Origin: an uncultured bacterium
GTDB taxonomy: Bacteria > Bdellovibrionota > JACOXK01 > 2-02-FULL-40-11
Assembly: GCA_964392415.1 (NCBI GenBank)
Contig: CAYMPL010000002.1
Span: 12-64,011 of the forward strand
DNA length: 64,000 nucleotides
Direction: 5' to 3'
Every line of letters begins with the position of its first letter. Position 1 is the first letter of the stretch. The translations under genes and the position numbers were made by a program. The notes under the pieces are model-generated. The model was not told the DNA's origin, ran no database searches, and saw only the letters and a list, made by a program, of their open reading frames with translations. Positions 60,576-60,628 of the stretch are shown one piece after another.

Positions 60576-60628
60576 GATCCTTCGGGCTATGCCCTCAGGA
60601 TGACCGGGCTATGCCCTCAGGATGACGC
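60576..60628. repeat. Hairpin repeat copy R6 with internal tandem duplication (reverse orientation: GTCATCCTGAGGGCATAGCCCG x2 then AAGGATC)
   Basis: Overlaps the last 6 codons and the TAG stop of nadE (...VILRA*). Confidence 0.75.

Follow-up and report, generated by a model that had tools for sequence, protein, structure and literature searches.

The last codons and stop of nadE in an uncultivated bacterium very probably derive from a REP-type palindromic repeat

The nadE gene in the window, by which we mean the whole 64,000-nucleotide stretch of DNA analysed here, very probably owes its present end to a REP-type palindromic repeat, which lies on the 3' end of the gene and would have replaced the native stop codon and supplied the residues VILRA together with a TAG. 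The product carries the Pfam domains NAD_synthase (2e-77) and CN_hydrolase (4e-26) and was therefore identified as a glutamine-dependent NadE; its gene is the sole long open reading frame (ORF) across the repeat region. The features at this gene end are as follows.

60609-62270, minus strand: nadE, glutamine-dependent NAD+ synthetase, 553 aa, ending in ...PIAQQYREFSSVILRA*.
60627-60629, minus strand: junction codon AGC, an extra Ser, placed by blastn block boundaries and sequence comparison.
60609-60626, minus strand: apparently repeat-derived codons GTC ATC CTG AGG GCA TAG, encoding VILRA and the stop, by direct reading; absent from the related loci L004, L081 and L082.
60605-60626, minus strand: tag-side half unit GTCATCCTGAGGGCATAGCCCG, the nadE-proximal copy of a 22-mer, identified by repeat finding and by the same layout at other loci.
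60574-60604, minus strand: complete unit GTCATCCTGAGGGCATAGCCCGAAGGATC with the tail CTG, identified by pattern match.
60600-60797, plus strand: spurious 65-aa ORF, without a Pfam family and with substitutions that follow the nadE frame.

On the sense strand the gene ends ...CAG CAG TAC AGG GAG TTT AGC AGC GTC ATC CTG AGG GCA TAG, giving the C-terminus ...QQYREFSSVILRA, that is, ...REFS-S-VILRA-TAG, and from the gene end onward the minus strand reads ...TTT AGC AGC GTC ATC CTG AGG GCA TAG CCCG/GTCATCCTGAGGGCATAGCCCG/AAGGATCTG. The initial annotation had taken the six final codons for the repeat arm itself, and they are indeed read from the nadE-proximal copy. It had also credited the repeat with six residues and the stop; VILRA (five residues) and the stop codon remain, while the sixth residue, the Ser, belongs to the junction. 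Judged from this comparison of sequences, the last five residues of NadE and its stop appear to be derived from the REP-type repeat. The last base (C) of the junction codon completes a CGTC tag, the TAG at 60609-60611 falls within the inner hairpin of the nadE-proximal copy, in its loop and 3' stem, and the distal 22-mer copy with the closing arm AAGGATC is positioned 3' of the stop.

The repeat at this locus contains an exact tandem duplication, as had been proposed for its core. On the plus strand the 22-bp sequence CGGGCTATGCCCTCAGGATGAC stands at 60583-60604 and again at 60605-60626 with 100% identity, and the stretch within 60573-60629 reads GATCCTT CGGGCTATGCCCTCAGGATGAC CGGGCTATGCCCTCAGGATGAC GCT. 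Tandem Repeats Finder reported a period of 22, 2.0 copies and 100% matches, a second repeat search was concordant, and 100 dinucleotide-preserving shuffles held no copy of the 22-mer at up to 3 mismatches. The copy nearer to nadE (60605-60626) is a half unit consisting of the 5' arm, GA and the inner hairpin without a 3' arm, whereas the second copy (60583-60604) continues into the 3' arm at 60576-60582 and so forms part of a complete unit. The complete element occupies 60574-60626 and not 60576-60628, the span first given for it. As RNA, the half and complete units at the nadE 3' end fold with -29.3 kcal/mol (z -3.4). One unit would already yield this tail, so the 22-bp duplication makes no difference to NadE.

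The 65-aa ORF had been called spurious and translated from the repeat. Its start codon, ATG at 60600, is the ATGAC of the distal 22-mer copy, and the repeat supplies this ATG and about the first nine codons; the remainder is antisense to nadE. The label spurious is borne out by the absence of a Pfam match for the ORF and by the pattern of substitutions, which in 60630-60797 fall at nadE codon position 3 in 19 of 22 cases against L004 and in 16 of 18 against L081. Over the same interval 53 of 56 NadE residues are conserved in L004 and 54 of 56 in L081, and the antisense translation is altered at many positions relative to both.

Considering that the proposal of a remodelled C-terminus can be read against orthologs, we compared the gene end with 80 nadE loci, for which one genome per species was scanned, and with 120 NadE homologs from a protein search. 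As the initial annotation had anticipated, homology to the orthologs L081, L004 and L082 is lost at the repeat boundary, 60630; the blastn homology with L004 ends there, three bases short of the unit. None of the three carries the repeat: L081/P0001 (93% amino acid identity) ends ...TAT AGA GAA TTT AGC TTG TGA (REFSL*), L004 (89%) ends ...GAA TTT AGC TGA (REFS*) and L082/P0002 (77%) ends ...GAG TTT AGT TAA (KEFS*). A repeat-free ortholog ending in VILRA, the observation that was to count against the proposal, occurs in 0 of the 120 homologs and in 0 of the 77 orthologous loci that could be read to the stop, 3 of the 80 running off their contigs. The tail that follows the conserved GRRxPI motif has a median of 7 residues (range 3-17) in 119 homologs and 14 in the window NadE, which suggests a lineage-specific addition in a region tolerant of variation. 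The six extra residues are probably neutral, with an effect on NadE itself that is probably nil, because the tail after GRRxPI varies freely in length and sequence.

Two of the related loci have peculiarities of their own. In L001 (67% NadE identity; 2085-2262) the NadE tail GSLTQGSLTQK comes from two tandem copies of another small palindrome, GGGTC(T/G)CTGACCCAA, of which a third copy lies 140 nt downstream; independently of the window, it gives another case of a NadE C-terminus made from a repeat. In L004 (3001-4643), which belongs to the closest deposited genome (CAYJMQ01), nadE is present as two overlapping ORFs, 3001-4161 and 4158-4643, reflecting either a frameshift or a sequencing error.

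The unit at nadE is a member of a family. From the copies we derived the gapped pattern GTCATYCYGAR-N7-15-GARGRATC, which has 6 matches at five loci of the window and 0 in 100 shuffles. In short form the layout of a unit is GTCATCCTGAG-hairpin-CGAAGGATC. Besides the half unit at nadE, the window contains six complete units distributed over five loci.

20752-20780, plus strand: family unit inside the ORF 20735-21604, found by pattern and structure scan.
26889-26919, minus strand: family unit in the 5' leader of glnA, found by pattern and absent from the relative L100.
30905-30933 (plus) with 30943-30971 (minus): inverted pair with tails facing, found by pattern; it begins 6 nt past the stop of a 928-aa gene.
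47875-47903, plus strand: family unit in a divergent intergenic region, found by pattern.
60576-60604, minus strand: complete nadE unit, span of the pattern match.

The family is also recognisable by its structure. A structure-only scan that asked for any 5-mer, GA, an inner hairpin, GA and the reverse complement of the 5-mer, with no tag required, returned the window units and two in L003 only; all eight hits were preceded by GTC, start with AT and end with AT. In the five window units of equal length 45 of 45 cells pair, five of the nine pairs change on both sides and none on one side only, pairs 5-29 and 6-28 are invariant AU/UA, and the pairing signal collapses when the 3' partner is slid by any number of columns. 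The 736 kb of collected DNA gave 50 units, 29-35 nt long, with 24 distinct cores. Their architecture comprises a T/C-GTC tag, a 5-bp stem opening with A-T and T-A, tandem G.A/A.G, an inner hairpin and a CTN tail. Across the 24 cores the outer stem has 0 mismatches, its two variable positions being C-G in 11 and T-A in 13 at one and C-G in 3 and T-A in 21 at the other; the G.A/A.G is invariant, and the inner stem, of 2-5 bp, is free to vary. Loops of 3 nt are found in 17 of these cores, 14 of them GNA. The GNA triloops are closed by C-G, which we take to be the d(GCGAAGC)-type DNA mini-hairpin, and G-T wobbles are missing from the family stems. GTC is preceded by T in 44 of the 50 units and by C in 4, with one instance each of G and A (the tag of the nadE-proximal copy reads CGTC), and the 3-nt tail is CTC in 25, CTN in 41 and CCA in 3 of the 50.

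Rfam gave 0 hits at the gathering score over the whole window, 0 hits at E<=10 on 60540-60660 and, at E<=10 on the 30905 pair, only a chance mir-60 hit (E 2.8). Long family-specific strings had no match in the papers searched, and 11-mers matched unrelated primers only. A hammerhead-like reading (GUC...CUGA...GAA) was ruled out by the lack of a stem I and an incomplete CUGANGA core, and a MITE (70-300 bp, with terminal inverted repeats and target-site duplication) by the unit length of only 29-35 nt. No target-site duplication was visible at comparable filled and empty sites, though the flanks there have diverged.

The same sequence occurs far from nadE. The exact 29-mer of the nadE unit was found in 17 metagenome contigs of 34-61% GC with unrelated flanks, often beside an inverted partner unit, and from this we conclude that the repeat sequence is not native to nadE. 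It is hence of negligible probability that SVILRA is the native NadE C-terminus, with a coincidental likeness to the repeat or with a repeat derived from nadE: that reading can point to the open reading frame itself and to nothing else, and it faces both the lack of this tail in the 93, 89 and 77% orthologs and in 120 of 120 homologs and the presence of the 29-mer in unrelated contigs and of related units (five) at four other loci of the window. Horizontal transfer is an unneeded cause for the identity of the 29-mer in the 17 contigs, since only some 16,000 inner hairpins (4 bp + 3 nt) are possible and, in so large a family, units would be expected to coincide by chance. Family units are also present in one contig each from Elusimicrobiota, from Acidobacteriota and from a relative of the window's organism, and more than 120 IMG/VR (viral-class) contigs carry them. 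One viral contig, L180, has at 8519-8980 five tandem copies of an 86-89-nt unit that is a tail-to-tail dimer, a BIME-like cluster.

The half-plus-complete layout of the nadE locus recurs elsewhere. In these arrays the half unit, GTCATYCTGAG followed by about 9-15 nt and lacking a 3' arm, abuts the next unit, and the array ends in one complete unit; the period is 19-22 nt, with one exception.

L092, 1298-1346: one half unit before a complete unit.
L084, position 992 (992-1051): one half unit before a complete unit, with the exceptional period of 26 nt.
L084, 3637-3578: three half units before a complete unit.
L093, position 1176: one half unit before a complete unit.
L093, 1198-1449: about 13 half units before a complete unit (the region of this contig that holds arrays is 1130-1481).
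L180, 8519-8580: one half unit before a complete unit.

Set beside these arrays, the 22-bp duplication at nadE reads as the smallest case of a layout recurrent in the family and not as an isolated slip.

The DNA beyond the repeat bears on how the gene end arose. Downstream of nadE, and convergent with it, lie the following genes.

58972-59445 and 59442-60563, plus strand: two overlapping FG-GAP ORFs, identified by Pfam FG-GAP.

These two ORFs share an ATGA overlap, and a single frameshifted gene may underlie them. The window and L004 are collinear on both sides, over 60630-64000 and 56213-58885, with the same order and orientation, and the window has about 1.7 kb extra (58886-60629) made up of the two FG-GAP ORFs and the repeat. 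The slot 3' of nadE is non-homologous in every relative: the downstream genes of L081 and L082 are unrelated to those of the window, and L001 and L002 have a gene of 492-494 aa there. Over the relatives as a whole (L004 at 4641-4690, L081, L082, L001 and L002), the slot holds nothing, a 180-aa gene, a TPR/aroQ operon or the 492-aa gene. Comparison of these loci suggests that the nadE 3' flank is a variable slot with the repeat unit at its edge. The opposite edge of the FG-GAP block (58886-58972) yielded no second repeat copy, which means that units do not enclose the block on both sides.

From these observations the following course of events may be proposed. The ancestral nadE would have ended ...REFS-TGA, and in this lineage the native stop and the downstream DNA would have been replaced at 60629/60630 by the REP-type repeat. 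Translation would then run through the Ser junction codon and VILRA and end at a TAG that lies by chance in the loop of the inner hairpin. The repeat may have inserted independently or may have come in as the border of the 1.7-kb FG-GAP block, and the data fit both; the extra 22 bp would be a second, tag-side half unit past the stop that leaves the protein unchanged. The idea that an insertion remodelled the C-terminus thus keeps its first half, a tail that looks repeat-derived and is missing from orthologs. Insertion of the repeat by itself is only one possible route, as none of the relatives has a flank homologous to the window past the repeat and none offers an empty site that differs by the unit alone.

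An exact-protein look-up of the window NadE and FG-GAP proteins in other assemblies returned none on record, so one assembly is all that documents the duplication and the join. We considered in this context whether the VILRA tail could be nonexistent in the organism, the product of a false join or of a 22-bp duplication made by the assembler. The repeat is the exact point at which synteny with each relative is lost, this nadE is present in no second assembly, and contigs of related MAGs terminate at family units: the L100 contig stops at the unit at 30905 and P0121 starts inside the unit at 20752. Such breaks in related or identical MAG contigs make the repeat appear to fragment short-read assemblies. 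A false join would nevertheless have required two errors that jointly restored the synteny seen with L004 on both sides, a single unit alone already gives the same tail, and half-plus-complete arrangements are found in several independent assemblies. An artefact is, on these grounds, very improbable, and we retain the replacement of the native stop by the repeat.

The position of the hairpin could also be explained by a role in RNA, in which case it would be kept mainly as a bidirectional terminator or 3'-end stabiliser and its overlap with nadE would be a by-product, with no need of selfish spread. The hairpin fills the 45-nt gap between the convergent stops of nadE and the FG-GAP gene, its RNA fold is the strong one given above, and published REPs are most often situated 3' of ORFs and between converging genes (PMC3733652). 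A T-run is, however, missing on either strand, and a terminator scan of 60300-60900 had no site at the repeat; other units of the window are located in a 5' leader, in a divergent promoter region and within an ORF, some pointing along and others against the direction of transcription; the triloops are mostly C-G-closed GNA, a DNA mini-hairpin signature, on stems without G-T wobble; and no Rfam family matches. We regard retention as an RNA element as unlikely, and spread of a repeat onto the gene end remains our preferred reading. An intrinsic (Rho-independent) terminator in particular was rejected for want of a T-run, the flanks being CTGTTGGAAAAAG and GACGCTGCTAAAC.

Fusion of repeat copies to other gene ends had been suggested as a further check, and within the window it has one counterpart. 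The unit at 20752-20780 encodes part of the N-terminal MNTKWTSFRGRSPRNL of the ORF 20735-21604, upstream of a hydrophobic signal-peptide-like stretch, and the only plausible start of this ORF is an ATG that overlaps the upstream stop. Its 89% ortholog P0122/L100 starts with MSLVFFVLC and is preceded by a different, unit-free intergenic sequence. It appears from this comparison that the unit replaced the start codon and gave the neighbouring predicted secreted protein a new N-terminus. At 20752, 26889 and nadE the window has units that a relative of about 86% nucleotide identity lacks.

To place the family among known systems, we compared it with the tagged REPs. These fall into GTAG-tagged and CGTC-tagged superfamilies, the latter including dRS3 of Neisseria and RPE-4 and RPE-6 of Rickettsia (Di Nocera, De Gregorio and Rocco, 2013, BMC Genomics 14:522; PMC3733652). 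CGTC REPs have uninterrupted stems of 8-9 bp, loops of 4-5 nt, a 3-nt CCA tail and the tag variants TGTC and CCTC; they occur mostly as inverted dimers, in five phyla, with no dedicated transposase (PMC3733652). [quoted passage not shown] A REP-made gene end is, in this light, a real but ordinary and already published phenomenon.

The window family shares with the CGTC REPs an unpaired tag ending in GTC, an AT-first stem and a 3-nt unpaired tail, as well as inverted dimers, clusters, a distribution over several phyla and copies inside ORFs and at protein ends. The encoded peptides are alike in style, with VIPAKAGI and SFPRKRES in the CGTC REPs (PMC3733652) and VILRA and SFRGRSPRN in the window family. 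Unlike the CGTC REPs, the window family has a stem of 5 bp followed by tandem G.A/A.G and an inner stem of 2-5 bp, a loop mostly of 3 nt (GNA) and a tail CTC/CTN instead of CCA. Given these differences in stem, loop and tail, we file it as a variant within the tagged REPs and not as one of the four published CGTC families. The survey dropped repeats with more than one stem mismatch, so a GA-interrupted variant would have been filtered out of it (PMC3733652).

The GTAG REPs and REPINs are mobilised by RAYT transposases (Bertels and Rainey, 2011; PMC3116915), and GTAG REP termini often give the flanking ORF a TAG stop (PMC3733652). The window family resembles them in being composed of short interspersed hairpins, often in inverted pairs, whose presence varies between related genomes; it differs in its tag, T/C-GTC in place of GTAG (GTRG), and in being common to several phyla where GTAG REPs are specific to one genome. 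A further difference concerns the mobilising enzyme, for which tblastn with approximate IS200 and RayT queries, a weak test, gave no hit in the 736 kb including the 64-kb window. The association of GTAG-tagged REPs with RAYT transposases was reportedly described by Nunvar in 2010.

In E. coli, REPs stabilise mRNA 3' ends and, when they lie within about 15 nt of the stop, lower translation via ribosome stalling. Effects of REP/BIME elements on E. coli mRNA are said to go back to Newbury in 1987 and to Liang, Rudd and Deutscher in 2015. As in that system, a stable hairpin stands at or over the stop of the upstream gene, and BIME-like dimer clusters occur in the family (L180); the nadE stop differs in lying inside the hairpin and not upstream of it. 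By analogy, a stable hairpin around the stop may affect mRNA 3'-end stability or translation termination.

With the gene end itself an ordinary case, the remaining interest lies in a GA-interrupted, cross-phylum REP variant, also present in viral contigs, and in its half-unit arrays, a concrete feature that any proposed mobilisation mechanism must explain. A broader reading, which we offer tentatively and do not favour over more modest ones, is that of a widespread, possibly uncatalogued and recently active GA/GNA branch of the CGTC/TGTC REPs that remodels gene ends and undergoes directional half-unit amplification. Recent activity here refers to the three sites that differ from the genome of about 86% nucleotide identity, and amplification to the tag-side arrays with a period of 19-22 nt and up to about 13 copies, always ending in a complete unit. 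If true, directional amplification of half units could point to how a mobilising enzyme nicks and recopies the element. For annotation, the locus offers an example of a repeat that would account for the last five residues and the stop of a housekeeping enzyme and, probably, for the N-terminus of a predicted secreted protein encoded nearby; in addition it gives rise to a spurious ORF, and related MAGs have contig breaks where it occurs. An uncultivated lineage labelled "Deltaproteobacteria" joins the hosts of tagged REPs.

Copies within a reading frame were also seen in the rumen metagenome contig L084, which has at least 11 complete units in 4.2 kb. Four of its units, forming two inverted dimers, lie in frame within an 836-aa FtsX-type ABC permease ORF (1043-3553), where they encode ...ILRSAQDD...GVILSETKNL... 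and ...DSSASPQND...SVILRRLKTDEGSP...; these in-frame dimers resemble the RPEs of Rickettsia.
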